Shown here: positions 2,201 through 57,829 of the stretch, piece after piece
Layout of the letters: each line of letters starts with the position of its first letter
How positions within the stretch are numbered: the first letter of the stretch is position 1
DNA from: an uncultured virus (IMG/VR IMGVR_UViG_3300048817_000099)
Lineage: Duplodnaviria > Heunggongvirae > Uroviricota > Caudoviricetes
Virus record (IMG/VR): IMGVR_UViG_3300048817_000099
Reading direction: 5' to 3' (one strand)
Length of the DNA stretch: 64,000 nucleotides
The notes under the pieces: generated by a model
The model's input: the letters and a program-made list of their open reading frames with translations, nothing else
Told to the model about the DNA's origin: nothing
The model's database searches: none
Program-made: the position numbers and the translations under genes

Positions 2201-3400
2201 ATGAAAATCGTCAGGTTCACCGCGGAGAACGTCAAGAGGCTGAAGGCGGTCGAGATAGAGCCTTCGGGCGATGTCGTCGTCATCGCTGGTCGTAACGCTC
2301 AAGGCAAGAGCTCCATCCTCGATGCCATTTGGTTAGCCCTTGGCGGCGGCGCTGCGGCAAAAGAGACCACCCGTCCCATCCGTGACGGCGAGGACCACGC
2401 CAGCGTCGAACTGGACCTCGGCGACCTGGTGGTCACCCGGACGTGGAAGGACGGGAGCACATCCCTCCGAGTCTCCAACCACGACGGGGCCTCCTACAAC
2501 TCGCCGCAGAAGATGCTGGACAAGCTGGTCGGCGGTCTGTCCTTCGACCCGCTGGAGTTCGCCCACCAGGCAGCCAAGGACCAGGTGACCACCCTGCTCG
2601 ACCTGGTGGAGTTACCCTTCGACCCCGACGAACTGGCTGCCCGGCGCCGGGGTATCTTCGATGACCGCACCGACATCGGTCGCGAGGTCAAGGCCCTGGA
2701 GGGAGAACTGGCCGGCCTGCCGGAAGTCGACCCCGTACCTGAGCCGGTGGACACCGCCGAGGTCATGGCCCAGATGGAGAGGGCGTTGCTCGACAACCGG
2801 ACCCGTGAGGCGGCCGAGGACCAGTTGGCAACGTGCCGAGCCTCGGTGACCGAACTGGAGGACCGTCTGGCTCAGGCCAGGCTGGCTCTCACGACCGCGA
2901 TAGCCGACCTCGGCAGTCTGCCCGACATAGTCGACACCGAACCGCTACGGGAGACCCTGGCCAGTGCTGCTGAGGTCAACGCCGTGGTCGCCCAGCATGA
3001 GAAGCGGGAGACGGTCGTCTCCAAACTGGACCTCGCTCGGAAACACCGTGACGCCTTCACCGCCAAACTGGAGGCCCTCGACGCCGAGAAGGCCACCGCT
3101 CTGGCTGAGGCTGACATGCCAGTCGATGGACTGAGCTTCGACGAGGACGGTGTGCTCTACCAGGGAATCCCGTTCAAGCAGGCGTCGGCGGCTGAGCAGC
3201 TCCGGGTGTCGATGGCCATGGCGATGGCCGCCAACCCCGCCATCCGAGTCGTTCGTATCACTGACGGGTCGCTGCTTGATTCCGAGAACATGGCAGTTAT
3301 TGCCGAGATGGCGAAGGCCACCGACACTCAGGTGTGGATTGAGAGGGTCGACGACACCGCCGGTGTGGGCATCATCATCGAGGACGGAGAGATTGCGTGA
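2201..3400 (+). CDS. SbcC/RecF-like AAA ATPase with coiled coil
   Basis: ENVKRL start, Walker A GRNAQGKSS, long coiled coil, signature-like ASAAEQ, Walker B-like VVRITDG; RBS ggagag. Confidence 0.8.
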   Translation: MKIVRFTAENVKRLKAVEIEPSGDVVVIAGRNAQGKSSILDAIWLALGGGAAAKETTRPIRDGEDHASVELDLGDLVVTRTWKDGSTSLRVSNHDGASYNSPQKMLDKLVGGLSFDPLEFAHQAAKDQVTTLLDLVELPFDPDELAARRRGIFDDRTDIGREVKALEGELAGLPEVDPVPEPVDTAEVMAQMERALLDNRTREAAEDQLATCRASVTELEDRLAQARLALTTAIADLGSLPDIVDTEPLRETLASAAEVNAVVAQHEKRETVVSKLDLARKHRDAFTAKLEALDAEKATALAEADMPVDGLSFDEDGVLYQGIPFKQASAAEQLRVSMAMAMAANPAIRVVRITDGSLLDSENMAVIAEMAKATDTQVWIERVDDTAGVGIIIEDGEIA

Positions 3401-4194
3401 CTCCGGCCAAACAGAGTCTCGACGAAATCCTCGCTGAGCACTCCGGGCCCGGTCGTGGACGGTCATCGACGGTCAACATGTCGGACCGGGAGGCCGCGGA
3501 GAAGCGTCATATCTATTCGGACCCACGCACGGGGGAACGGGTTATCGGCGTGACCACCGTTGTCGGCTGCTACGACTCTGGGGACAAAATCGGCGCGGGT
3601 GCCGGGGCCGCGGCGAAGCTCATCCGCTCTGGCGTGGATTACCGAAAGCAGTGGAACGAGAAGAAGGACCTCGGCTCCCGTATCCACGAACATGTGGCTA
3701 GATGGGCCGAGGGGAAGACCGCCGACGTGCTCGAAGAGGACATGGGCCACATGGACGCCTTCGAGAACTTCTGCCGAGCCGAGAAGCCTGAATGGATTGC
3801 CACCGAGCGCGCCGTGGTGGGTGACGGCTTCGGGGGGAAGCTCGACCTCATCGGGTGGTTGCCGAAGCGCGAGTCCTATTGGCTACTGGACGCAAAGTCG
3901 GGCCGGCCTTACAAGGCCGAGCTGCTGCTCCAACTCGCAGGGTATGCCGGGTCCGACGGGTTCATCGTCTATGACGAATCGGGCAAGGCCGTCGGCATCG
4001 AACCACTACCTCACATCGAACGGTGGGGCGGTCTGTATCTGAGTGGGGACGGGACGTACTTCCTGGCCGAACCGGACCTGCCGAGAAAGGACGACCCCCG
4101 CACCATCGCTGAAATCCAAGAGGACGCCATGTCGGCGTTCCGCCATCTCCTCGCCGTGAAGGCGTGGAGCAAGACCGTAGGGAAGGACCAATGA
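3397..4194 (+). CDS. PD-(D/E)XK exonuclease (RecB/Cas4-like phage recombination nuclease)
   Basis: GVTTV, GSRIH, E..V, GKLDL, LLDAKSG, QLAGY motifs. Confidence 0.8.
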   Translation: MTPAKQSLDEILAEHSGPGRGRSSTVNMSDREAAEKRHIYSDPRTGERVIGVTTVVGCYDSGDKIGAGAGAAAKLIRSGVDYRKQWNEKKDLGSRIHEHVARWAEGKTADVLEEDMGHMDAFENFCRAEKPEWIATERAVVGDGFGGKLDLIGWLPKRESYWLLDAKSGRPYKAELLLQLAGYAGSDGFIVYDESGKAVGIEPLPHIERWGGLYLSGDGTYFLAEPDLPRKDDPRTIAEIQEDAMSAFRHLLAVKAWSKTVGKDQ

Positions 4195-5027
4195 CCACCA
4201 CCGACCAGCCAGAAGAGGCACCGCCCCAACTGTGGACGCCGCCCGAGACACTGCCCAAGACGCCGTACAAGGCCCCAGAGGGCGACGACGCCCAGACAGC
4301 CGAGGGGAGGATTGAGGGGCCGCTCAAGGCGCTCAGAGAACCGTTTGACGCCAAGGTGGTCGGTATCCTGCCCAAGCCGTATCGCAAGGACTCGGAGAAG
4401 AAGAACTGCCCGGAGTGCGGTGGGTTCCATGGGATGCCCGCCGCTCATCTCAATTACGTCGGCCACGCTGCCGTCACTGACCGGCTTCTGACCGTCGATG
4501 CCCTGTGGAACTGGGAGCCGTTGGCCTACAACGACGACGGACTTCCACTGCTCGACGGCGCCGGCGGCATGTGGATCAAACTCACCGTGGCGGGGGTCAC
4601 CCGGCTCGGCTACGGCGACGGTGGGGACCCGAAGGTGCGAATCGGGGATGCCATTCGGAACGCGGCCATGCGGTTCGGTGTAGCCCTCGAGTTGTGGACA
4701 AAGGACGAACTCGAGTCTCTCATCGGCAACAATAAGGTCGCCACTCGTCGTAAGCCTCCCAAGAGTTCCACGCCGACGACCAAATCACGTCGAACCGCGC
4801 CGGCCACCGACCCGGCCACCGACGGTCAGGTCGGCATGACCGCCCAGCACCGCAACCGGCTCATCTCCCACCTCGGCCACCTCGACCCGCCCATTCTGGG
4901 AGGGGACGCACAGATGCTCAAGGTGCAGTCTTTGCTCAACCTGGACGAGGCGAAGCCGTTGGTCAAGCTGACTCAGGAAGAGGGCGAGAAGTTGTTTGAG
5001 ATCCTCGGCATAAAGGCCACGACGTGA
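4191..5027 (+). CDS. Rad52/Sak-like single-strand annealing protein
   Basis: HLNYVGHAAVTDRL...DAIRNAAMRFGVAL; located next to the exonuclease. Confidence 0.7.
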   Translation: MTTTDQPEEAPPQLWTPPETLPKTPYKAPEGDDAQTAEGRIEGPLKALREPFDAKVVGILPKPYRKDSEKKNCPECGGFHGMPAAHLNYVGHAAVTDRLLTVDALWNWEPLAYNDDGLPLLDGAGGMWIKLTVAGVTRLGYGDGGDPKVRIGDAIRNAAMRFGVALELWTKDELESLIGNNKVATRRKPPKSSTPTTKSRRTAPATDPATDGQVGMTAQHRNRLISHLGHLDPPILGGDAQMLKVQSLLNLDEAKPLVKLTQEEGEKLFEILGIKATT

Positions 5028-28920: not shown

Positions 28921-29580
28921 ATGAGAGCCAGACTTGCTGTTACCGCCGTATTCACCCTTGTCACCATCGGAGCGCTATGCCAGACCTCACCATCACAGTC
29001 AGCGAAGAGCTCGCCACCCGCATCCAGGACTACTCGGCTGAGTTCCCTCACGCTGACCGCATCATCCACGACCTGGCGACAACCATTCGACTTGCTCGCA
29101 TGGCGACCCCTTCGCCCCTCTACTGCACGGCCTGCGGTCACCGGAACCCCGGTCACTACCCCAACTGCCCCGCCGACTACGACGACAACGCCGCCATCCT
29201 CCACCGCGACAACGACGCCATCGTCGCCCCCGGAAACGGCACCGGTCACCACGTCCACGGTCCCACCTGCGACGCCCCCTGTTTCGTCCCCACCCAGTGA
29301 GGGCGTCACTGCCGAGGAGTACGCCGAGTGGCTTGCTATACAAAATTGCGAGGAAGGTCCCGGCACGACAGGTTGGGCCACTGCAGGTAGCGAGTATGAA
29401 GGCGGACTCGGTTTTCTCTATCAGACGTGGGACCAGTACAACGTCTACGGGTACCCGGCCGACGCCGCTGACGCCACTCCAGCCGAGCAGATTCAGGTGG
29501 CTCAGAACGTGGCCGACCATCTGCTCGGTGGCGAGGTTCCCTACGCGGCTCCGGACTGCGTTGGCTATCGGGGTTGGTAG
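28921..29580 (+). CDS. Secreted Rpf-like transglycosylase
   Basis: Signal peptide, P/T linker, WLAIQNCE...GGLGF...TW...ATPAEQIQVA. Confidence 0.8.
   Translation: MRARLAVTAVFTLVTIGALCQTSPSQSAKSSPPASRTTRLSSLTLTASSTTWRQPFDLLAWRPLRPSTARPAVTGTPVTTPTAPPTTTTTPPSSTATTTPSSPPETAPVTTSTVPPATPPVSSPPSEGVTAEEYAEWLAIQNCEEGPGTTGWATAGSEYEGGLGFLYQTWDQYNVYGYPADAADATPAEQIQVAQNVADHLLGGEVPYAAPDCVGYRGW
28977..29300 (+). CDS. Candidate overprinted ORF inside the Rpf gene
   Basis: GGAG upstream of ATG; globular-looking sequence with CTACGH...H..C. Confidence 0.45.
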   Translation: MPDLTITVSEELATRIQDYSAEFPHADRIIHDLATTIRLARMATPSPLYCTACGHRNPGHYPNCPADYDDNAAILHRDNDAIVAPGNGTGHHVHGPTCDAPCFVPTQ

Positions 29581-29648
29581 TAGGATTGGGCGAAGGGCCG
29601 GGCGGTGTGGCAACACCCCCGGCATGGCCAGACCCCAGGAGGTCCGAC

Positions 29649-30359
29649 ATGCCAAAGGGTACTTGTTCTGAGCGTCGTTGTTTGAACCGTGTTTATGCTC
29701 GGACTTGGTGCGCAAAGCACTATCGGAAGCGATGGGCCGACAAGGCGACCTGGACCACGGTGCTCATCAAGGGTGACGATGAACGTCGTTTCTGGTCGAA
29801 GGTTGAAAAGTCCAAGGGTTGTTGGCTCTGGACCGGGACAATCAGTGTCTACGGCTATAGAAGGTTTTCCTTTACGGTAGATGGGAAACGGCGCGAGACG
29901 TCGGCCCATCGATGGTCATATGAGCACCTAGTGGGTCCCATTCCTGATGGCCTGCACATCGATCATCTATGCCGCGTCCGTAACTGCGTTCGTCCAACTC
30001 ATCTAGAAGCAGTTACATGCCGGACCAATGTTCTCCGAGGCGTGGCTCCGCCAGCTCAAAACTACCTTGCCACTCACTGCAAGCACGGCCATCCGTTTGA
30101 CGATAAAAACACGTATATCCGGCCCAATGGGAATAGAGGATGCGTTACTTGTCGGAGATTGGCCAGCGAACGCCACCAACGTAAAATCGGAGTAAAGCCA
30201 ATGACCAGATTGACGTTTGCCAGCTGTCCTGTTTGTGGCGAGCGATTCAAGGTGAGATTGATATCCAATGGGGTCGGTCCTCAACGGACATGTTCTCGAA
30301 CGTGTGGCCAGAGACTTCGATTCGCCAAAACCATGCACGAACCTCTGCCGGTGCGCTAA
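29649..30359 (+). CDS. Free-standing HNH homing endonuclease
   Basis: RFWSKV, CWLWTG, AHRWSY, DHLCRVRNCVRPTHL, THCKHGH; more AT-rich than flanks. Confidence 0.9.
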   Translation: MPKGTCSERRCLNRVYARTWCAKHYRKRWADKATWTTVLIKGDDERRFWSKVEKSKGCWLWTGTISVYGYRRFSFTVDGKRRETSAHRWSYEHLVGPIPDGLHIDHLCRVRNCVRPTHLEAVTCRTNVLRGVAPPAQNYLATHCKHGHPFDDKNTYIRPNGNRGCVTCRRLASERHQRKIGVKPMTRLTFASCPVCGERFKVRLISNGVGPQRTCSRTCGQRLRFAKTMHEPLPVR

Positions 30360-32973: not shown

Positions 32974-33450
32974 CGGTCGCTTCGAGGACTGGCCCGCGGC
33001 CGACCGCATCACTTGGCTGGTCGAAGAGATGGACCGGGCCGTCCTCGAAGGTTGGAACATGGGCGATGACATCGCCCTCCCCGCCTACGTGCTCAACGCC
33101 TGGTCCGACCAGCTCGCCACCCTGGCCGACGACCTGCAGGCCGCCGCTGACTGGCCCACAGAGCCCGCTGTGGTCCTCTGTGCCGTTCGGGGGCACGGAA
33201 GGACAGCATCGCCCTGTGACCGCCCCTCCGGCCATTCTGGCGGGCACTCGTGGGAGGTCGAGCGCTATCGCCGGATGGCCCTTGAGATGGAGCAGACGGC
33301 CGGTCTCGTCCCCGGACTGCGCCGGAAGGTCGCCCAGGAGCGGACGAGGCGTATGACGGCTCAGGGGGAACTACAGCGGCTCAAGGAAGGACCGCAGGCC
33401 CACTACGGCAAGCAGAGGCCGACGCCGGACCGGGGCTAGCGTCTAACGAC

Positions 33451-35925
33451 GTGACCGCCACAATCGACCCATCCTCGGACGACCTCCGGTGGCTCATGAC
33501 TCTCGGCCGCGAGGAACTGTTCGACCTGCTGGCGGCGATGGAACCCCTGCGTCGGGTAGCACTGGTCGAGGCGATTGAGAGGTTGGCGCCGCCGCCGAAG
33601 CCGTGGGAACCGCTTCCTCACCAGGTTCCGCCGGATCCGGATGAGACATGGTCTGGCTGGCTCGCGCTAGCTGGCAGAGGGTCGGGCAAAACAAGCGGTG
33701 TCACCCACTGGCTCAACGACCACGCCAACGGCCCGGCATGTCTCGACGGCCCGATTCCGCATCGCATGGGCATCATCGCCCCGACCCTCGGTGACGCCTC
33801 GGCTTCTATCGTCCACGGTGACGACGGACTCAAGGTCATCAACCCGGAGGTCCGAGAGGTAACCCGCAAGGGTGGCACGGTGGTGCTCTGGCCGAACGGA
33901 GCCGAGGCGATGCTGTTCGGTGTTTACACTCGCAGTGATGTCGAGCGACTAAGGGCAAAAACAAATCGCTGTCTATCGGCAGGGACGCTCGTTGCTACCG
34001 AACGAGGACCGGTTCCGATTGAGAAAGTGACCACGTCCGATCGCGTTTGGACTCGGAATGGTCTGCGGCGAGTGTTGGCTGCTGGACCCACCGGTGTCAA
34101 GGAATGCATCGTGCTCACGGCAGAGGACGGCCGCCAGATTCGACTTACCCCCGACCACCTCATAAACGCAGGTCAGGAATGGAAACAAGCTGGACTTGCG
34201 AGTAGAGTTTGGGTATGCCACGACCTGTCATCGAATACAACGGACGGCGTTACTACCAACGCGAGGACGGCTACTACGGGAACAACAAAGGTGGCCTCTT
34301 GCATCGGGCCATCTACACCGATAACTACGGTCCGATTCCCCCAGGGAAGAACGTCCATCACATCGACCACGACAAGGAAAACAACGACCCGGCGAACCTC
34401 ACGCTCCTTACGCCGAAAGAGCACTGGCATGAGCATGGTGACGACCGACCAGCTGATTGGCACTCGCTCGGTGGTCGGAAAATGTGGGCCACCCGTCCGG
34501 TCGTCACGGTGGAATGCACAATTTGCGGGACGCCGTTTGACCAACGGAAGATACAACCAGCGCTTTATTGCTCCAAACCCTGTGCCAGAATCGGGCAGCA
34601 CAATCAATCCAGAGCCGAGGCAACTTGCGAGGTCTGCGGCACCGTGTTCGTCACCATCAAGTACACCCCGGCTCGCACTTGCTCCCCTCACTGTCGTGCA
34701 ATCTTCGCCTACCGGACTCGTCGAGCCAGTGTTCGACCTGACGGTGGAGACTGACCACGAGTTCTTCGCCAACGGGGTTCTCGTCCACAATTGCGCCGAT
34801 CTCAGGGAGGAAATTGCAGCCTGGCGCTACCTGCGGGATGGGATGGACCAAGCGGACTTCGGTCTACGCAAGGGCACTCACCGCTGGGTAGGAGCGACTA
34901 CCCCGAAGCCTAGACCAACCATCCGGAAATTGGTCAAGGACCCGCGGGTCGTACTGATCACTGCCACCACGGACGACAACCCGCACCTGGCCGCCGACAA
35001 GCGGGAGGAGCTCTACGAGAAGTTCGGCAATACGCGGCTCGGGAAGCAGGAGTTGGAAGCGAAAATCCTTGAGGACCAGGCCGGCGCTCTGTGGACCCAG
35101 GAACTGATTGAGCAGTATCGAGTGACCGAGGCAGACGTACCTCGCCTGATCCGGGTGCGGACCTACGTCGACCCCTCATGGGGCACGACCCACGATGAAT
35201 GCGGAATCGTCGTCTGTGGCCTTGGCGTCAATCGCCATCTCTATGTTCTGGCCGACCTGAGCAAACGAACCACACCGAGCGAGTGGGGAATGCTGGCCGC
35301 CATCGGTCGTATCCCTCCGCAACGGAAGGACGGTTCCTGGGTTTTAGAGCCTGATTGGGAGCCACGGGACTACTGCGGCAAGGTGAGTGAGTGCGTGGTG
35401 GCCGAAAAAAACTTCCAGGGTGAGCAGGTCCGCCTGGTCATGAAGCTGACTAGTCGGGATATCGGACAGCGCATTCGATTCGGGTGGGTCAATTCAAGCC
35501 AAGGCAAGCGGCTCCGAGCCGAACCGGTGGTGCAATTGTTCGAGCGAGGTAAGGTCCACATGGTCGGCTCGCATGAGCATCTCGAATGGCAACTCACGAA
35601 CTGGGTCCCACCAGAAGCCAGTGACGGAGAGACGGACCAGGGTGACCCCGTCGAGCACGAAGGCGGAGCCGAAGATGGACAAGACCCGTCGAAGTGGAGT
35701 CCCGACAGACTGGACGCGATGGTTTTTGGGTGCTCAGACCTGCTTATCGGCCCCAACTCCGGCACCGGCAAACTCGAAATCGCCGACGGCCGCGTCCCCC
35801 GTCCCTCCCTCGAACGCTCGGCCGGCCCGCAGTCGAAAGGGCCGCAGATTGGGGCGATTCCGATGAGCACGCGGCAGGGCAGAATTATTCGTGAGCAACA
35901 GGCGGAACGGAGACCTGCCGAGTAG
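33451..35925 (+). CDS. terL: Terminase large subunit with intein
   Basis: Walker A AGRGSGKT, ATTP motif, nuclease residues VDPS, EKN, SPDRLDA; intein at aa 174-447. Confidence 0.92.
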   Translation: MTATIDPSSDDLRWLMTLGREELFDLLAAMEPLRRVALVEAIERLAPPPKPWEPLPHQVPPDPDETWSGWLALAGRGSGKTSGVTHWLNDHANGPACLDGPIPHRMGIIAPTLGDASASIVHGDDGLKVINPEVREVTRKGGTVVLWPNGAEAMLFGVYTRSDVERLRAKTNRCLSAGTLVATERGPVPIEKVTTSDRVWTRNGLRRVLAAGPTGVKECIVLTAEDGRQIRLTPDHLINAGQEWKQAGLASRVWVCHDLSSNTTDGVTTNARTATTGTTKVASCIGPSTPITTVRFPQGRTSITSTTTRKTTTRRTSRSLRRKSTGMSMVTTDQLIGTRSVVGKCGPPVRSSRWNAQFAGRRLTNGRYNQRFIAPNPVPESGSTINPEPRQLARSAAPCSSPSSTPRLALAPLTVVQSSPTGLVEPVFDLTVETDHEFFANGVLVHNCADLREEIAAWRYLRDGMDQADFGLRKGTHRWVGATTPKPRPTIRKLVKDPRVVLITATTDDNPHLAADKREELYEKFGNTRLGKQELEAKILEDQAGALWTQELIEQYRVTEADVPRLIRVRTYVDPSWGTTHDECGIVVCGLGVNRHLYVLADLSKRTTPSEWGMLAAIGRIPPQRKDGSWVLEPDWEPRDYCGKVSECVVAEKNFQGEQVRLVMKLTSRDIGQRIRFGWVNSSQGKRLRAEPVVQLFERGKVHMVGSHEHLEWQLTNWVPPEASDGETDQGDPVEHEGGAEDGQDPSKWSPDRLDAMVFGCSDLLIGPNSGTGKLEIADGRVPRPSLERSAGPQSKGPQIGAIPMSTRQGRIIREQQAERRPAE
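33970..34791 (+). mobile_element. Class 1 intein (274 aa) in terminase
   Basis: CLSAGTLV block A, LTPDH block B, VFDLTV...FFANGVLVHN|C blocks F/G. Confidence 0.92.
34215..34754 (+). CDS. HNH endonuclease nested out of frame inside the terminase intein
   Basis: LHRAIY...GPIP...VHHIDHDKENNDPANL...EH..EH plus CxxC pairs; different frame from the intein. Confidence 0.85.
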   Translation: MPRPVIEYNGRRYYQREDGYYGNNKGGLLHRAIYTDNYGPIPPGKNVHHIDHDKENNDPANLTLLTPKEHWHEHGDDRPADWHSLGGRKMWATRPVVTVECTICGTPFDQRKIQPALYCSKPCARIGQHNQSRAEATCEVCGTVFVTIKYTPARTCSPHCRAIFAYRTRRASVRPDGGD

Positions 35926-35934
35926 TATCTCGGC

Positions 35935-36023
35935 GTCGGGCCGGAGGGTCGATCGGTTACCAACCTTGTAAGTTGGCCGAGGTGCTGCACACCTCAGCTT
36001 CCGGTCCCCGTGACACGCCCGAC
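35935..36023 (+). ncRNA. Y RNA-like element 1
   Basis: GTCGGGC(C)GGAGG...ACACGCCCGAC terminal stem with bulged C; internal GGTTACC. Confidence 0.7.
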
Positions 36024-36046
36024 ACTTCGTGCTAACGTTTACGTCG

Positions 36047-36117
36047 CTGGGCCGGAGGACAGTTCGGTTACCTTGCATGGACGCCTTCGGGCACTCCGGA
36101 CTCCATCACATGCCCAG
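36047..36117 (+). ncRNA. Y RNA-like element 2
   Basis: CTGGGC(C)GGAGG...GGTTACC...ACATGCCCAG. Confidence 0.7.
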
Positions 36118-36130
36118 TTCTTTCTCCGGT

Positions 36131-36262
36131 GCGAGCCGGAGGCAGTCGCTTATCGGAGCTGGAGGTCGCAGGGTTCGAATCCCTGCTCTGACGACCGAGT
36201 CGTCGGGTAGCGCAGTTTGGTAGCGCGCCAGCATTAAACAGCGGTCGCCACAACATGCTCGC
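36131..36262 (+). ncRNA. yrlA: YrlA-type Y RNA with permuted tRNA-like domain
   Basis: GCGAGC(C)GGAGG...ACATGCTCGC Ro stem; T arm GCAGGGTTCGAATCCCTGC precedes a loop-closed acceptor-like stem and D arm TAGCGCAGTTTGGTAGCGC. Confidence 0.88.
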
Positions 36263-36308
36263 CCCAAACGTTTGCGTTCCGAATCTCGGGGCGCTATGGT
36301 CGAAATCG

Positions 36309-36370
36309 CTGGGCCGAAGGCCGTGGGTTACCTTCATAAACGTATATCCCGCAGCCACCAACACGCCCAG
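36309..36370 (+). ncRNA. Y RNA-like element 4
   Basis: CTGGGC(C)GAAGG...GGTTACC...ACACGCCCAG. Confidence 0.7.
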
Positions 36371-36413
36371 TTCCTCGACCACCGCAGGGTGGTCCCAAGT
36401 GCAGGAGGACCAG

Positions 36414-38027
36414 ATGCGAGACCCCCTTTCCACCGTAGGCACCCGTGTGACCCCTCAGTCCGAGCGTGCCCACCCCGATCAGATCGCCAACTCGGCTGGC
36501 GGCTATTCGTTTCCCGTCGATGACTGGGGTCGCGCCCTGAGATTCCTCGTTCTGGGGACTGACGGCGGCACCTTCTACATCTCCGAGAAGGACCTGACCA
36601 TGCAGAACGCCGAGGTCGTCATCCGACTGGCCAACGGTGCCGAGGGGCGCAAGTTGGTCGACCTCATCGTCGACGTGTCCAAGAACGGTCGCGCTCCTCG
36701 CCAGAACCCCACTCTGTACGCCCTGGCCGCCTGCACGGCATCGCCGGACGTGAACACCCGCCGCGCCGCTCTGGCTGCCATCCCTGTCGTGTGCCGGACC
36801 GGCACCCACCTGTTCATCTTCGCCCGCTACGTCGAGCAGTTCCGTGGTTGGGGCCGGGGGCTCAAGCGGGCCATCGGCCAGTGGTACACGGAGAAGCCGG
36901 TCGGCGACGTGGCTTTCCAGGCCGTCAAGTACCGAAATCGTGAGGGCTGGTCTCATCGGGACATGCTCCGTCTGTCGCACCCGAAGACATCCGATCCCCA
37001 GCGCAAGGCGCTGTTCGACTGGGTCGTCCGTGGAGCCACCCTGCCGGAATCGCTTGAGCGGGACCTAGACGAGTGGGGCCTGCCGGGTACCGTGGTCGGG
37101 TACGAGGAGGCGCAGGTCGCCACCACGCCGTCGGAGTGGGCCCGGCTCGTCACCCAGTACAGCCTGCCCTGGGAGACACTGCCCGACGCCGCCCTCAACT
37201 CGCCAGAGGTCTGGGAGGCATTGCTGCCCCACATGGGCTACACGGCGCTCATCCGCCAGCTCGGCCGGCTATCTCGCATCGGCTTGGTCGCGCCCATGAG
37301 CTCGGCGACGAAGCTGGTGGCCGACCGTCTGGCCGATGGCGACGCACTCCGTAAGGCTCGAGTCCACCCGCTGTCCGTGCTGGTCGCTCTGGCTACCTAC
37401 GCGCAGGGTCACGGGTTCCGTGGGGCGTCGGCGTGGACTCCGGTGCCTCAGGTGGTCGCCGCGCTGGACGAGGCGTTCTACCTGGCTTTCGGAGCCATCG
37501 AGCCTGCTGGCAAGCGCACGCTGGTGGCTCTGGACGTGTCCGGCTCCATGACCATGGGCCAGGTGGCCAACTCGCCGTTGGCCCCGTTCCAGGCCGAAGG
37601 CGCCATGGCCATGACCGTGGTCAGAACCGAGCCGGAGTACTTCACCATGGCTTTCTCGGGCGGGTTCGTCTCGCTCCCTCTGACGCCCAAGCAGCGCCTG
37701 GACGACGTGCTCCGGACCATGGCCAACATGCCCTTCGACCGGACCGACTGTGCCGTGCCCATGGTGTGGGCCGAGCACAATCGAGTACCGGTGGATACGT
37801 TCCTGATTTACACGGACTCCGAGACGTGGGCCGGGACGATTCACCCCCACCAGGCGCTGGAGCGCTACCGGCAGAAGATGGGCATTCCGGCCCGTCTGGC
37901 CGTCATCGGCATGACCTCCAACGGGTTCAGCATCGCCAATTCGAATGATGCGGGCGAGCTGGACTGTGTCGGGTTCGACACGTCCACCCCCCAGCTACTG
38001 ACCGAGTTCTCCGCTGGGCGTTTGTAG
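36414..38027 (+). CDS. rsr: Ro60/Rsr (TROVE + vWA) RNA-binding protein
   Basis: NSAGGY.F, RFLVLGTDGGTFY, KYRNREGWSHRD, DVSGSM MIDAS, TDSETW; RBS aggagg. Confidence 0.95.
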   Translation: MRDPLSTVGTRVTPQSERAHPDQIANSAGGYSFPVDDWGRALRFLVLGTDGGTFYISEKDLTMQNAEVVIRLANGAEGRKLVDLIVDVSKNGRAPRQNPTLYALAACTASPDVNTRRAALAAIPVVCRTGTHLFIFARYVEQFRGWGRGLKRAIGQWYTEKPVGDVAFQAVKYRNREGWSHRDMLRLSHPKTSDPQRKALFDWVVRGATLPESLERDLDEWGLPGTVVGYEEAQVATTPSEWARLVTQYSLPWETLPDAALNSPEVWEALLPHMGYTALIRQLGRLSRIGLVAPMSSATKLVADRLADGDALRKARVHPLSVLVALATYAQGHGFRGASAWTPVPQVVAALDEAFYLAFGAIEPAGKRTLVALDVSGSMTMGQVANSPLAPFQAEGAMAMTVVRTEPEYFTMAFSGGFVSLPLTPKQRLDDVLRTMANMPFDRTDCAVPMVWAEHNRVPVDTFLIYTDSETWAGTIHPHQALERYRQKMGIPARLAVIGMTSNGFSIANSNDAGELDCVGFDTSTPQLLTEFSAGRL

Positions 38028-53885: not shown

Positions 53886-54200
53886 ATGAGTGCCACCATG
53901 ACCGCCACTGTCGTCGCGTTCCGGCTGACCCCTGCCCTTTGGCTTGTACTGGACGTTTTCGCCGTCTTCAGGCTGACTCGCTTGGTCACTCGGGACACAA
54001 TCACCGAGAAGCCCCGCCAGTGGGTCAAGCGGAACCTGGGGACAGCGGCGTTTGATTTCTGTGAGTGCCCTTGGTGTACCTCGATTTGGCTGGCCATCGG
54101 CGTCGTCCTGCTGACGGTGTTCGCCCCGCACCAGTGGCAGTACGCGGCCTATGTCCTGGTCTGCTCGGCCGTCGCTGGCGTCCTCGCTGAGCGGTCCTGA
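53886..54200 (+). CDS. DUF1360-like membrane protein (holin-like)
   Basis: FRLTRLVTRDTI...CPWCTSIW; exact start uncertain. Confidence 0.8.
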   Translation: MSATMTATVVAFRLTPALWLVLDVFAVFRLTRLVTRDTITEKPRQWVKRNLGTAAFDFCECPWCTSIWLAIGVVLLTVFAPHQWQYAAYVLVCSAVAGVLAERS

Positions 54201-57200
54201 TGGCGGGCAAAGAGCTCAGTACCCGCAACCGCCGGTTCCTACAGAGACTCCAGAGGCAGGAGAAGCCGGTCGCTCACCGGGCGTTGACGGCGGCGGCCAT
54301 GCCCATCAACCTGGCCAGCAAGACAGAGGCGCGGCGGATGCGGGTGTTGCGTCAGGGCTGGCAGAATGACGCGGCCGCCTACGCGGATTCCATACCTGAG
54401 CTGAGTTTTGCTTATGAGTTCCTTGGTAACGCGTCGAGTCGAATGCGGTACTTCCCCGCCTGTGTCAATCCCGAGGAGCCGGACGGACCGCCCATTCCCA
54501 TCGCCGAGGTCCCCGGTATCCCCCAAGGCGTTGTTGACGTGGCCCACCAGGCCATGAGTGCTCTTGGTATCGGTCGCCAGGCGGTGGCTCCGCTGCAGAA
54601 GTCATTGAGTTGGCAACTGGGCGTTCCCGGAGAAGCGTTCCTAGTGGGGATGAACGACCCGCAGGACGGCGACGAGCAATGGTCCATCCGCTCCATCGAC
54701 GAGTTCATGATCTTCGATGACACTTACAAGTTGCGCGAGGTCCCGCTCGACCCGCAGGGCACGCTTGGGTGGATACCACTTGACCCGGCGACCACCTATG
54801 CGGCGCGGCTTTGGAATCCGTGGCATCGCTTCAACAAACTGGCCACCAGTCCGATGCGCGCTCTGCTCGACGTGAGCGAGGAACTGTTACTCCTGAGCCG
54901 TGATGTCCGTTCGGTAGCTCGTAGCCGTCTGACCGGCGGCGGCATCCTCAAGATTCCCGAGGGCCTGCGCATGGCCCCCATCAACGAGGACGACGATGAC
55001 CCCGAGTCCGAGGCGTGGTTCGGTCGGTTCGCTGAGGCGATGATGACCCCCATCTCCGACGATGGCGTGGCCTCTGCCGTGGTGCCCATCGGCATCAGCG
55101 GCGACCCCGAGTCGCTGGCCCAGCTCGACCACCTCATCATCGACCGGCCCTACTCGCCGTTGGCCATCGAACTGCGAGCCGAAGCTATTGGGAGAATCGC
55201 CACTGGACTCGATTTCCCCCGGGAGATTCTCGAGGGAATTGGTGACGTTAACCACTGGCAACAGGATGAATTGACCGAAGTGTTCATTCAGGGGAAGGGA
55301 TGGTGTCGCCATCAGCAGGTGGAGGTTGGAGATCAGGTTCTAGCGTTCCATGTTGAGGGTGGCACTACTAGTTATGAGACGGTTGCCGAAGTGCTGCGGG
55401 AAGAGGTGGTCGACCGGGACGTGGTTTCGATGGAGGGCCGCTATCATTCATCACTGACCTCGTACGAGCACCGTTGGCCCGTATGGCACGGCGACCGATT
55501 CGTGTTCTGCCAGAGCAAGGATCTGATTAACAACCCACAATCAGGTCCGAACAAGGCATATATGGTGCTTGGCGCTCCATACCAGTCGCCCGTGACGCCA
55601 GAATTCACCGACGCTGAAGTGGCCGTGATGGCGTGGTTGAGCACAGATGCTGATGTGTACCGGCCGTGGGGCGGGCGAGAGCGCCTGCGGATTCGCCAGC
55701 GAAATGCCGAGAACGTCGCAGCTCTCCGAGGCATAGTCGCCGGGTTCGACCATGTCGAGCGCCATGATGAGTCGGCGGAAGTGACCGTTTTCGAGTTGAC
55801 AGCCGATGAGACGGAACGGTGGCTAAGTCTCGGCGAGCGCTTAGCAACTCGGTGGGTACCGACATTGTCCGTCATCCAACGGTTCACCCGGTCGCAACTG
55901 GAGTTGTTCCTGGTGACGTGTGAGCGGGCGAACGGCGGCACAAAAGCGAAGCGAACCGTATTTGCCATTGACCCGGCCCGGCTGGCTCCGGTTGAGCACG
56001 CCGCGGTTCTAGCTGGTTATCGGACGACGATTCGCCAGCGCAACCAGCAACACGGCTTCGGTACCGAGCCGGTGTGGCGGATCACATGGGGTACCCGAAC
56101 CCTGTTCGCACCCAACCGTGAGCATCACATCACGGAGACCACTTACACGGGGACGCTGTGGTGTCTGAGCGTTCCGGTGGGCAAGTCGTTCCTAGCTCGG
56201 CGCAATGGTCATACGTTCTTCACTGGCAACTCTGGGATGCTCGTCAGCGACGAAACGTTCCGCCATCACATCGAACCGCAGGTAATCAAGCAGGTCGACT
56301 GCATGAGCGCGGGCTATCTCCGAGTCTGGTTGACGGCGGCGGGCATCCCGAAGTACTGGGTCGACCGTATCTGCGTTTGGTACGACCCGGTCGACCTCAT
56401 CTCCAAGCCTGACCCGATGGCCAACGCCGTGCTCCTACACGACCGGTTCGCCATCAGCAACGAGGCGCTCCGCGATGCCGGTGGGTTCAAGGAAAGCGAC
56501 CAGCCCGGTGCACTCGAAATCGAGTTCCGGATGCTGCAGAAGACCCGCACGTTCCCCCCCAACATGGTGGAGGCCATCTTCCACAAGGTCGACCCCGAGC
56601 TGGCCTTCCCGCCCATCAATACCAGCGGCACTATCCCCGGCATCGGGCCGCAGGGCGAGATTCCAGCCGAGGCCCCGCAACCGGCTGCGCCAGCCGCCCC
56701 AGCGTTGCCACCCAGCGCCCCTCTACCTGCTTCCCCGGCCCCGGCACTGCCACCCGAGGCCAGCGCCACACCCCCGATGACCGCGCCGACAGAAGCCTTC
56801 GCCACCCCACCGAACCCGACCCACGTCCGCCTGTCCCGCAAACTCACCGAAATCGACAGCCAGCTCCGGGCCCGTATCCAGGTGGCCGCTTGTGCGGCTA
56901 TGACCCGGCTGTTGGACAAGGCCGGCGCCAAGCTCCGGACCCGGGCCGCCGACCGGAAGTTCAAGGACAGCGAAGTCAAGACCTTGGTGGCGGGACAGCC
57001 CGACAACCGCCTGGTGGCCTCCACCATCGGCCCGGCCCTGGTGGCTTCCCTCGGCTTCACAACCGCTCCTGAGCTACTGAGTGCGGACTGGAGCGAACTG
57101 AAGGCCCAGTTCATGGCCTGGACCGAGGCGGCCCAGAAACAGGCGCTCCGGGTGGCCATGCAACTGGCCGGCATCACCACCGAGGACGAGTCGTACCAGG

Positions 57201-57829
57201 CGGCCGATCTTGCCTTGTCCTCCAGCGTGGCCCCGGCCTGGGAGGTCATGGAGGCCGCGCTCAATGCCCTGGCCGAGAAGGTGCTCTACACGCCGGATGG
57301 CGACCTGGACCCAGGGGCGGCGTTCGACCCGAACAGCGTGGTGCCGATGGGGGTCGTGCGGAACGCCCTGACCATTGCCGGGGGGACACCGCCGCCGGAC
57401 AACGTGGTCGACGTGAGCCAGCCAGTCGATGTAGGTACAGACCCGGCGGGAGCCATGGTGTCGGTGAACGTGCCCGGCCAGATTGGGAACGGGGACGCCA
57501 TCTCGACTCTGTTGGATGACTCGGGGATGCAGGTTGTCACCTATGAATGGATTCACGGGTCGGGTGGTCAGCATTCATTTGAACCGCATGAGGACCTGGA
57601 CGGGGTGCCGTTCGCCAACTTCGATGACGATGTATTGTTGAACCCAGGCGACTGGCCCGACGTGTCACATTTCAGTCCTGGCGATCATTTTTCGTGCACG
57701 TGCGATGCGGCCTCCATCTACGGTCCAGGTGACAGCGGCCCCGACATCCGGCCCGACCAAGGTCCGCAACTTTCCGACGACGAGGGCGGCTCCGAACCCG
57801 TCAGCCCCGATGCGGGAGGCGACGAGTGA
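54200..57829 (+). CDS. Portal protein fused to a MuF-like minor capsid domain, with intein
   Basis: Actinophage-type portal motifs (SRLTGGGIL.IP, SAVVP, NHW|S); C-terminal WIHG...PH..LDG...PGDHFSCTC. Confidence 0.85.
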   Translation: MAGKELSTRNRRFLQRLQRQEKPVAHRALTAAAMPINLASKTEARRMRVLRQGWQNDAAAYADSIPELSFAYEFLGNASSRMRYFPACVNPEEPDGPPIPIAEVPGIPQGVVDVAHQAMSALGIGRQAVAPLQKSLSWQLGVPGEAFLVGMNDPQDGDEQWSIRSIDEFMIFDDTYKLREVPLDPQGTLGWIPLDPATTYAARLWNPWHRFNKLATSPMRALLDVSEELLLLSRDVRSVARSRLTGGGILKIPEGLRMAPINEDDDDPESEAWFGRFAEAMMTPISDDGVASAVVPIGISGDPESLAQLDHLIIDRPYSPLAIELRAEAIGRIATGLDFPREILEGIGDVNHWQQDELTEVFIQGKGWCRHQQVEVGDQVLAFHVEGGTTSYETVAEVLREEVVDRDVVSMEGRYHSSLTSYEHRWPVWHGDRFVFCQSKDLINNPQSGPNKAYMVLGAPYQSPVTPEFTDAEVAVMAWLSTDADVYRPWGGRERLRIRQRNAENVAALRGIVAGFDHVERHDESAEVTVFELTADETERWLSLGERLATRWVPTLSVIQRFTRSQLELFLVTCERANGGTKAKRTVFAIDPARLAPVEHAAVLAGYRTTIRQRNQQHGFGTEPVWRITWGTRTLFAPNREHHITETTYTGTLWCLSVPVGKSFLARRNGHTFFTGNSGMLVSDETFRHHIEPQVIKQVDCMSAGYLRVWLTAAGIPKYWVDRICVWYDPVDLISKPDPMANAVLLHDRFAISNEALRDAGGFKESDQPGALEIEFRMLQKTRTFPPNMVEAIFHKVDPELAFPPINTSGTIPGIGPQGEIPAEAPQPAAPAAPALPPSAPLPASPAPALPPEASATPPMTAPTEAFATPPNPTHVRLSRKLTEIDSQLRARIQVAACAAMTRLLDKAGAKLRTRAADRKFKDSEVKTLVAGQPDNRLVASTIGPALVASLGFTTAPELLSADWSELKAQFMAWTEAAQKQALRVAMQLAGITTEDESYQAADLALSSSVAPAWEVMEAALNALAEKVLYTPDGDLDPGAAFDPNSVVPMGVVRNALTIAGGTPPPDNVVDVSQPVDVGTDPAGAMVSVNVPGQIGNGDAISTLLDDSGMQVVTYEWIHGSGGQHSFEPHEDLDGVPFANFDDDVLLNPGDWPDVSHFSPGDHFSCTCDAASIYGPGDSGPDIRPDQGPQLSDDEGGSEPVSPDAGGDE
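55259..56230 (+). mobile_element. Class 3 intein (324 aa, Gln1) with degenerate LAGLIDADG domain
   Basis: QQDELTEV start; HRW, LWCL and FTGN|S give the W-C-T triad; MAWLSTDAD. Confidence 0.85.

Follow-up and report, generated by a model that had tools for sequence, protein, structure and literature searches.

An HNH endonuclease gene nested out of frame within the terminase intein of an uncultured virus, and a census of its relatives

Nuclease genes that sit inside an intein, in a reading frame other than that of the host gene, are already in print, from the terL intein of the brucellaphages (2015) to the Gogarten-laboratory reports of 2025–26. Here we describe such an arrangement in the large terminase gene (terL) of an uncultured virus of the Caudoviricetes, IMG/VR record IMGVR_UViG_3300048817_000099, of which a stretch of 64,000 nucleotides was analyzed (hereafter the window). 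This terL gene contains a contiguous intein, and between the splicing blocks of the intein lies a complete HNH endonuclease gene on the same strand, while the host frame stays free of stop codons. We consider it very probable that the element is a non-canonical intein, namely a mini-intein with a nested and separately expressed homing-endonuclease gene resembling I-HmuI.

The brucellaphages (Tb, Pr, and relatives) are reported to carry in terL an intein within which an HNH gene is nested out of frame (Virol J 2015, PMC4422536). Like that of the window, the terL intein of Brucella phage Tb (L110; terL 2347–4893, nested HNH 3170–3856) is contiguous (Intein_splicing 218–506) and holds a complete, same-strand HNH open reading frame (ORF) in another frame, and the Tb record (NC_019446) annotates terL and HNH as separate coding sequences. 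The nucleases differ, as the Tb protein belongs to Pfam HNH (PF01844), has its zinc ribbons before the catalytic core, and aligns with the window protein over the core only (36% over 56 residues); in addition, the start offset of 823 nt places it in frame +1 of terL, whereas the window gene lies in +2. A preprint by Gosselin et al. (2025) reports inteins whose nucleases lie in a frame of their own or on the opposite strand, and proposes invasion by free-standing genes. The inteins described there share with the window the use of frame 3, hosts that include terL, a structureless in-frame linker, a nuclease that folds in its own frame, and the proposed origin. Their nuclease, carried by phages Sedona, Affeca, Keitabear, and Angelicase, is given as endonuclease VII-like (1E7D match, Z 6.5, residues 1–67), whereas that of the window is an I-HmuI-like HNH_3 protein with C-terminal zinc ribbons; HNH_3 is its only Pfam match, and T4 endonuclease VII is missing from the 35 chains that reach Z 2 or more, an absence that excludes nothing. 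No PhagesDB terL of this kind was seen among the best 30 of 131 and the best 60 of 132 homologue records. The preprint calls the layout rare, whereas most of the HNH relatives sampled here have it.

Two further systems are close. The ShiLan domain is an HNH insertion hidden out of frame in the DNA methylases of mycobacteriophages (Arsenault et al., Genes 2025, PMC11855218), and its gp65 region is homologous to the window HNH (30.8% over residues 14–125, E 2e-5). It is likewise found in the third frame of a host gene whose own frame is stop-free, and its authors propose leaderless initiation; it is described as lacking intein splicing domains and is thought to be retained in the methylase, whereas the window insert is flanked by a complete Hint domain. 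In a cyanobacterial dnaX intein, a LAGLIDADG nuclease occupies a +2 ORF (Phillips, DeSimone and Gogarten, bioRxiv 10.64898/2026.09.14.751524, a preprint that cites Gorbalenya 1998 for the first proposal). Common to this case and the window are a disordered in-frame linker, a confident fold for the nuclease of the +2 ORF, purifying selection on the nuclease frame, and a proposed secondary invasion of a mini-intein; the differences lie in the LAGLIDADG family, the host (a cellular replication gene), and the Shine-Dalgarno motifs reported in place of a leaderless layout. Our literature search, which left the supplements of the preprints outside its scope, returned no description of the HNH_3/zinc-ribbon family as a widespread frame-3 passenger of inteins. 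What goes beyond the literature consulted is the census of relatives, an account of the fixed frame in terms of stop codons, and hints on expression from promoter spacing and RNA.

The terL locus of the window is laid out as follows, with all features on the plus strand.

33451..35925, plus strand: terL precursor ORF, intein included; 824 residues, with Terminase_6N, Hint_2, and Intein_splicing
33451..33969, plus strand: N-extein; 173 residues, C-terminal end …RLRAKTNR
33970..34791, plus strand: contiguous class-1 intein; 274 residues, from Cys1 (TGT, 33970) to His-Asn
33970..34224, plus strand: N-terminal splicing region of the intein; residues 1–85, with block A CLSAGT and block B TPDH at 34147–34158
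34215..34754, plus strand: HNH homing-endonuclease gene; 179 residues and TGA, frame +2 (frame 3) relative to terL, HNH_3
34225..34674, plus strand: intein-frame linker; residues ~86–235, S/T/R-rich, predicted disordered, a shifted reading of the HNH gene
34356..34436, plus strand: HNH catalytic core HHIDHDKENNDPANLTLLTPKEHWHEH; residues conserved in a 34-sequence alignment
34515..34694, plus strand: two CxxC…CxxxC zinc-ribbon units; C101/C104/C119/C123 and C138/C141/C156/C160
34675..34791, plus strand: C-terminal splicing region of the intein; residues 236–274, blocks F and G, …VLVHN, Intein_splicing profile 132–155
34678..34754, plus strand: ~25 codons over which both products are predicted to be structured; C-terminal helix and tail of HNH over the beta-strands and block F of the intein
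34792..35925, plus strand: C-extein; opens with the +1 Cys, CADLREEIAAW…

The insert has the features expected of a class-1 intein, with Cys1, a block B TxxH, a terminal His-Asn followed by Cys (…VLVHN, then C, at 34777–34794), a Hint fold, and a conserved insertion site. Pfam recognized Terminase_6N in the 824-residue product, Hint_2 over residues 174–239, and the C part of Intein_splicing over residues 424–447, with no family match in the S/T/R-rich middle of the intein frame. The intein residues C1, T60, H63, and N274 are invariant in an alignment of 34 sequences, and the +1 Cys (C448 of the precursor) is invariant across nine aligned TerL sequences. In a structural model of the intein frame (alignment A4, 34 sequences), residues 1–85 and 236–274 are beta-rich, with predicted local distance difference test scores (pLDDT) of 96–98 and 95–97, respectively, and residues ~88–232 have a pLDDT of 41–55 and no secondary structure. 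The folded part matches the gp41-1 mini-intein (template modelling score by target 0.86, root-mean-square deviation 2.0, probability 1.00), as well as the Mtu RecA, Ssp DnaB, and Npu DnaB mini-inteins (probability 1.00). The GC content is 0.55–0.59 over the insert and ~0.66 in the flanks, a dip that fits a foreign element. A canonical bifunctional intein with an in-frame endonuclease was rejected, as the in-frame linker has no family match and is predicted to be disordered, and a split intein was rejected for the window given the single ORF at 33451–35925.

The terminases without an intein define the insertion site. With the C-extein as the query region, 112 of the 120 TerL relatives listed are 453–568 residues in length, and the remaining 8 are 665–831 residues and carry Hint labels; identity in the exteins reaches 74%. 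P0001–P0003, the closest relatives (72–60% identity), lack an intein, and in them the empty site reads …RLRA..NR/C.D.REEIAAW, where …NR joins C(A/C/L)D(L/V)REEIAAW directly. Together with the motifs and the model, these relatives lead us to infer that the terL precursor is spliced.

The HNH gene starts at the ATG at 34215 (with an alternative TTG at 34209), and its ORF matches Pfam HNH_3 (E 5.6e-14) and phrog_15471, "HNH endonuclease" (1.7e-29). Residues H48, H49, D51, N56, N57, N61, H70, and H74 are invariant among the 34 sequences, and the zinc-ribbon cysteines are invariant or at least 90% conserved. The model of the HNH frame (A3, 34 sequences) has a mean pLDDT of 92.0, and its best solved match in Foldseek is I-HmuI, an HNH homing nicking endonuclease of phage SPO1 (PDB 1U3E; probability 1.00, E 9.9e-3). 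Using VIA-align, the same structure gave Z 8.1 over 115 aligned residues (model residues 6–127, root-mean-square deviation 5.6), ahead of the runner-up I-PpoI (Z 4.4), and the C-terminal part of the model is similar to the zinc ribbon of YacG (Z 4.3). The product thus has the profile, the catalytic His…Asn…His, and the fold of an HNH homing endonuclease, the fold being like that of a solved homing enzyme. I-HmuI ends in a helix-turn-helix and sits in a group I intron; the nuclease of the window, with which it shares HNH_3, is carried by an intein and has two zinc ribbons as its C-terminal half.

The two coding frames interlock closely. About 181 codons are open in both, and the TGA of the HNH gene (34752–34754) spans the Thr-Asp codons of intein block F (VFDLTVETDHEFF). 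HNH residues 155–179 share their DNA with intein residues 237–261, and as both overlapping products are predicted to be structured here, these ~25 codons appear to be truly dual-coding. The initial annotation of the locus, which was made from the letters alone, had described the intein, its motifs, a TAGAGT hexamer, the HNH ORF, and its stop within block F, and all of these statements, including their coordinates, are correct.

Off-frame HNH genes in other inteins, for which that annotation had suggested a tBLASTn search, do exist among cultured phages, and homologues of the HNH protein were found under terL in the Tetrasphaera phage TJE1, the Acinetobacter phage Highwayman, and the Vibrio phage 1.245.O. 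In the TJE1 and Highwayman phages, terL reads through a contiguous intein, and the HNH ORF keeps the relative frame seen in the window and has a start of its own, in Highwayman at a GC content of only 39%. In the 1.245.O phage the intein is split, such that TerL with the N-terminal intein half (IntN) runs into a stop and is followed by a free HNH gene and then a small ORF comprising …VVVHNC and the TerL tail. We did note that the public records of TJE1 (L001, 2477–3124) and Highwayman (L003, 2426–3073) annotate terL only, and not the nested HNH gene.

For a wider census, an alignment of four HNH proteins (A1; three nested genes and one split) was scanned over IMG/VR. The best 80 of 396 confirmed matches, which came from at least 593 pattern matches, make up 84 sources together with the three phages and the window. 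A second same-strand frame is open over the entire HNH domain in 57 of the 84 sources, and the host frame is HNH frame +1 in every one of these 57, never the other frame, across HNH-region GC contents of 0.32–0.70. The dual-coding element with an off-frame nuclease that the initial annotation had put forward, here a gene complete from start to stop codon, recurs in the same nesting across the sample. Forty spanning ORFs, one per group of identical or near-identical loci, were put to Pfam, and Hint_2 and/or Intein_splicing bracket the HNH region in all of them; 26 have a terminase as host, 1 a portal protein (L049), and 13 no host-family match at the threshold. In L049 (619–3126), the frame-3 HNH gene is nested within the intein of the portal protein (Phage_portal_3, 1.2e-78). 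Hint parts in the HNH frame itself were found in none of the census sources, although in-frame relatives may still exist elsewhere.

The nested genes also resemble one another in their boundaries. Of 44 distinct nested genes, 42 have their own start codon close to the conserved N-terminus (32 ATG, 9 GTG, and 1 TTG); after an in-frame stop, there is usually no other candidate. The HNH stop lies 12–30 codons (median 20) before the last intein residue in 41 of 42 relatives, and among these 42 it is block F that often supplies it, through its Y/F-D codons. A scan of bacterial and archaeal genomes gave 26 loci, only 9 of which were covered beyond the catalytic core, and added 7 further nested cases in contigs of metagenome-assembled genomes labelled Aquiluna, Sediminibacterium, Burkholderiales, Planctomycetales, Gammaproteobacteria, Proteobacteria, and Smithella. 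Locus L093 was left uncounted, as its other frame is open but its match is weak (score 38.4).

For the 27 sources that lack a spanning frame, Pfam was run on 17 ORFs upstream and 12 downstream of the HNH gene. Twelve of the 17 upstream ORFs are a TerL that ends in the N part of Intein_splicing, and 11 of the 12 downstream ORFs begin with its C part; with TerL-IntN upstream and the C-terminal half (IntC) downstream, these are split inteins whose halves enclose an HNH gene. Dassa et al. (2009) described split inteins accompanied by free nuclease genes, and 12 distinct HNH relatives lie in the comparable order TerL-IntN, HNH, IntC-TerL, with the 3′ end of the nuclease gene overlapping the C part of the intein in both sets. 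In contrast to those systems, the window intein is contiguous, and the nucleases that Dassa et al. report are GIY-YIG and Vsr-like, with HNH given there as a prediction. A third layout is seen in L046, L058, L069, and L076, where the upstream ORF is a complete, intein-less TerL and the HNH gene comes just after it. In six split-intein loci (L002, L020, L047, L051, L053, and L082), both halves are still in one frame (HNH frame +1), and these look like nested inteins broken by stops in the linker, which, if true, would be a direct route from a contiguous to a split intein. The terL genes of L002 (Vibrio phage 1.245.O, 3–2624) and L044 (2–3718) apparently contain two inteins each, one LAGLIDADG-type (LAGLIDADG_3, Hom_end) and one HNH-associated, the latter split in L002 and nested in L044.

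The unit is patchily distributed. The insertion site of the window is likewise occupied in P0008, P0015, P0024, P0036, P0106, and L004, whose inteins show the same S/T/R-rich shadow linker; in P0023 and P0025 the intein at this site has a linker that is shortened, the mark of a decaying nuclease. Truncated HNH matches were found in L023, L036, L042, and L048. Across the census, the intein-nuclease unit occurs at several terL sites and in the one portal gene. This pattern fits homing followed by decay, as far as can be judged from the sequences. In P0094, one of the longer terminases (665 residues), a short intein whose linker is S/T-rich occupies a second terL site (…EHQM/C…HN/C HWVPP), and L015, L036, and L042 use that site as well.

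The two frames have been treated very differently by evolution, as the comparison of both frames foreseen in the initial annotation bears out: in the closer pairs, substitutions cluster at the third positions of HNH codons, and the linker frame has no conservation of its own. Nucleotide differences at HNH codon positions 1/2/3 number 36/20/77 between L010 and L038, 1/1/9 between L071 and L080, and 72/73/105 between the window and L004. The changed codons of the closer pairs are mostly synonymous or evenly split when read as HNH and mostly non-synonymous when read in the host frame (e.g., 20 synonymous vs 88 non-synonymous). Over 946 pairs, pairwise alignments reach a median BLOSUM62 score of 301.5 in the HNH frame vs 34 in the linker frame, and the one stretch of linker that does appear conserved, "TSITSTTTRKTTTRRTS", is a shifted reading of HHIDHDKENNDPANL. 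At the level of the family, the nuclease frame is thus conserved and the host-frame linker is not, a pattern that shows purifying selection on the HNH frame, with the intein-frame linker only kept free of stops.

Stop counts speak to the fixed register. The frame equivalent to that of the host holds 0 stops in the 44 distinct nested genes, a median of 5.5 (2–13) in 12 split-intein genes, and a median of 4.5 (2–11) in 10 other genes; the third frame holds a median of 14–15.5 stops in nested, split-intein, and other genes alike. Shuffling of synonymous codons predicts medians of 1.7 stops for the host frame and 15.9 for the other frame, and relatives without the constraint have 2–13 vs 1–38. With so few stops in HNH frame +1 (about 2–5 vs about 15), a nuclease gene would survive within an intein essentially only in that register. 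According to the respective papers, the same register is used by ShiLan ("third frame", PMC11855218), the actinophage endonuclease VII-like genes ("frame 3"), and dnaX ("+2 ORF"). The nested HNH gene of Brucella phage Tb, from a different HNH family, uses the other register, and hence the one-frame rule is not universal.

As to expression, the initial annotation held that the nuclease is made independently of the terminase, and it noted a leaderless layout. Two features bear on this.

34203..34208, plus strand: TAGAGT, a −10-like TANNNT hexamer 6 nt before the HNH ATG, in a leaderless layout
34219..34709, strand not known: span of the metatranscriptome contigs at 34219–34449, 34221–34365, and 34572–34709 (runs X17 and X18)

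The mycobacterial TANNNT −10 box occupies positions −12 to −7, and leaderless mRNAs begin at the start codon. A TANNNT with exactly 6 nt to the start is present in 11 of 42 relatives, window included, and every other offset between −45 and +64 is shared by at most 6 relatives. These 11 are mostly high-GC, and their host-frame peptides differ at this position. The hexamers make use of T-ending codons and AGA (Arg), which are rare in high-GC actinobacteria, and this suggests selection at the nucleotide level. An AGGAG lies at the right distance upstream of the start in several low-GC nested members; the Shine-Dalgarno-like motif upstream of the window gene is only weak.

Four metatranscriptome runs contain small shares of the sampled words of the window, and the RNA contigs of two of them, X17 and X18 from different studies, were placed on 33600–35100. 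These fall within the HNH ORF only, with none on 33600–34211 or after 34722 (N-extein, N domain of the intein, and C-extein), and two of them, one from each study, begin 4–6 nt after the HNH ATG. These positions hint weakly at a 5′ end and at separate, leaderless expression. Independent expression of the nuclease is supported by the hexamer spacing and the RNA contigs, but not proven. It is possible, at somewhat less than even chances in our estimate, that the intein carries its own transcription unit, in which the −10 box in the last strand of the N domain drives a leaderless nuclease mRNA while terL is silent, such as in early infection or in a lysogen, and that high-GC members throughout a large, phage-wide family have kept this layout.

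Several points weigh against the element being a nested, separately expressed homing-endonuclease gene, or at least temper that reading. The open second frame of the window is not significant in itself, as 15.6% of 2000 synonymous-codon permutations of the HNH gene keep the terL frame free of stops (P 0.156), and the case consequently rests on the relatives. For these, 57 in 84 is not an unbiased frequency, the sample being skewed to the query alignment, and the count of zero stops is partly circular, as "nested" was defined by the absence of stops; informative instead are the bimodality of the stop counts and the continuation of the Hint halves and exteins in that same frame. Selection is seen for the family and not for the window copy, whose best HNH identity is 47%. 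The 11 cases of the TANNNT spacing are not fully independent, given that the hexamers lie partly over a conserved Hint strand (e.g., RYGD-I/M). A sigma-70 scan of 33400–36300 returned no −35/−10 site, although a scan of this type requires a −35 box and is ill-suited to actinobacterial promoters with a −10 box only. Finally, the RNA consists of assembled contigs of low depth (about 5–10) and unknown strand from 2 of the 4 runs, for which DNA carry-over is possible.

Some of these points would also suit a silent relic, that is, a mini-intein with a junk linker whose nuclease has ceased to be made or has lost its activity in the window. The distance of the window copy from its nearest relative makes selection on it not measurable, decayed versions do exist (the shortened linkers and truncated matches noted above), and the Shine-Dalgarno-like motif is weak; yet the ORF is of full length and retains every catalytic and zinc-binding residue that is invariant in the 34-sequence alignment, its model is a confident one, the −10-like layout is kept, and the RNA contigs lie on the HNH ORF and not on its flanks, so we regard a relic as unlikely. 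A role as a helper of the terminase, in packaging or cos cleavage, draws some support from the frequent occurrence of HNH genes beside terminase genes (as described in PMC3592412) and from the members of this very family that follow an intact, intein-less terL. However, the 112 listed TerL relatives without intein and nuclease show the latter to be dispensable, its fold is nearest to that of a homing enzyme, the same nested gene is found in a portal intein, and a homologue is the mobile ShiLan insertion in a methylase (PMC11855218); such a role is, in our view, decidedly improbable.

The frame relation itself might be explained by programmed ribosomal frameshifting that joins the nuclease to the intein as an effectively in-frame domain, and the nuclease does occupy the −1 frame of its host in every nested case. 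Such a shift would have to take place within ~9 nt, as the stop-to-stop HNH ORF opens only 3 codons before the ATG (34206 vs 34215; many relatives are alike), and a second shift would have to lead back before the TGA. No X XXY YYZ heptamer was seen by eye in the terL frame there, 42 of the 44 relatives have their own start codon, and the split-intein relatives carry HNH as a plain separate ORF, which together make frameshifting a very remote prospect. The last alternative, in which two compensating sequencing or assembly indels moved an in-frame HNH domain out of frame, is hardly credible. A DNA contig of metagenome run X4 spans 33745–34825 in one piece with 0 differences and 0 gaps, the contigs of run X5 agree with the window across 33600–34939, again with no differences or gaps, and no support for indels was found; at least half of the sampled words of the stretch are contained in each of 13 peat/permafrost metagenome runs, and the same frame relation recurs in 44 distinct sequences. 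The argument of the initial annotation against a sequencing frameshift is thereby upheld by independent contigs.

We thus return to the non-canonical intein and the way in which it may operate. The terL mRNA would be translated straight through the insert, with intein residues 1–85 and 236–274 forming the Hint fold and ~150 disordered residues looping out, and splicing would then join …KTNR to CADLREE… to give a terminase of ~550 residues, as the motifs, the model, and the intein-less relatives suggest. The DNA of this loop encodes in frame 3 a complete, 179-residue I-HmuI-like HNH protein with two zinc ribbons, and comparison across the family shows that selection acts on the HNH frame while the terL frame is only kept free of stops. 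The nuclease is probably expressed on its own from an internal promoter, with TAGAGT as the putative −10 box of a leaderless mRNA, a step that the spacing and RNA data partly support. From the behavior of the family and its patchy distribution, the nuclease may be expected to cut an intein-less terL near NR/C, whereupon repair would copy the intein together with the nuclease gene (homing). As to origin, a free-standing, terL-associated HNH gene may have invaded a mini-intein in the one frame with few stops.

The window is a phage genome from peat or permafrost metagenomes, and besides the terminase it contains genes for replication, a methylase, a portal protein, and a major head protein. The terL gene had no DNA match in a blastn search of the phage collection. 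A second, free-standing HNH_3 gene lies at 29574–30356 (plus strand; 261 residues, phrog_826 2.3e-49), with a third-position GC content of 0.54 that is low for the genome. It is 26% identical to the intein HNH (E 3e-4), and it was rejected as a donor copy given this distant relationship; it is probably another homing nuclease gene. Directly downstream of terL, at 36255–38027 (plus strand), a 590-residue protein with Ro60/TROVE and vWA domains is encoded, and Rfam and tRNA scans of the whole window returned nothing, including no Y RNA. The portal ORF (54200–57829, plus strand) is 1209 residues in length, about twice that of the PHROG profile, and the portal match falls in two stretches; by eye, its middle (~residues 360–700) shows a possible in-frame intein or LAGLIDADG-type insert ending in …GN/S, where Pfam has no match.

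The locus therefore offers a well-documented case, together with a census, for a class of mobile elements that has only recently been recognized. In the census sample, this HNH family lives mostly inside inteins and in one fixed reading frame, and its three layouts (nested, between split halves, and free beside terL) form a visible series for the acquisition of nucleases by inteins and for the origin of split inteins. For annotation, terminases with S/T/R-rich, "low-complexity" intein cores merit a check of frame 3. The −10 spacing and the RNA contigs provide a concrete and testable answer to the question of how hidden nucleases are expressed; should the intein indeed carry its own transcription unit, this would explain how out-of-frame homing nucleases come to be made at all, and a few codons of the intein would be under three constraints at once, from the intein fold, the promoter, and its spacing.

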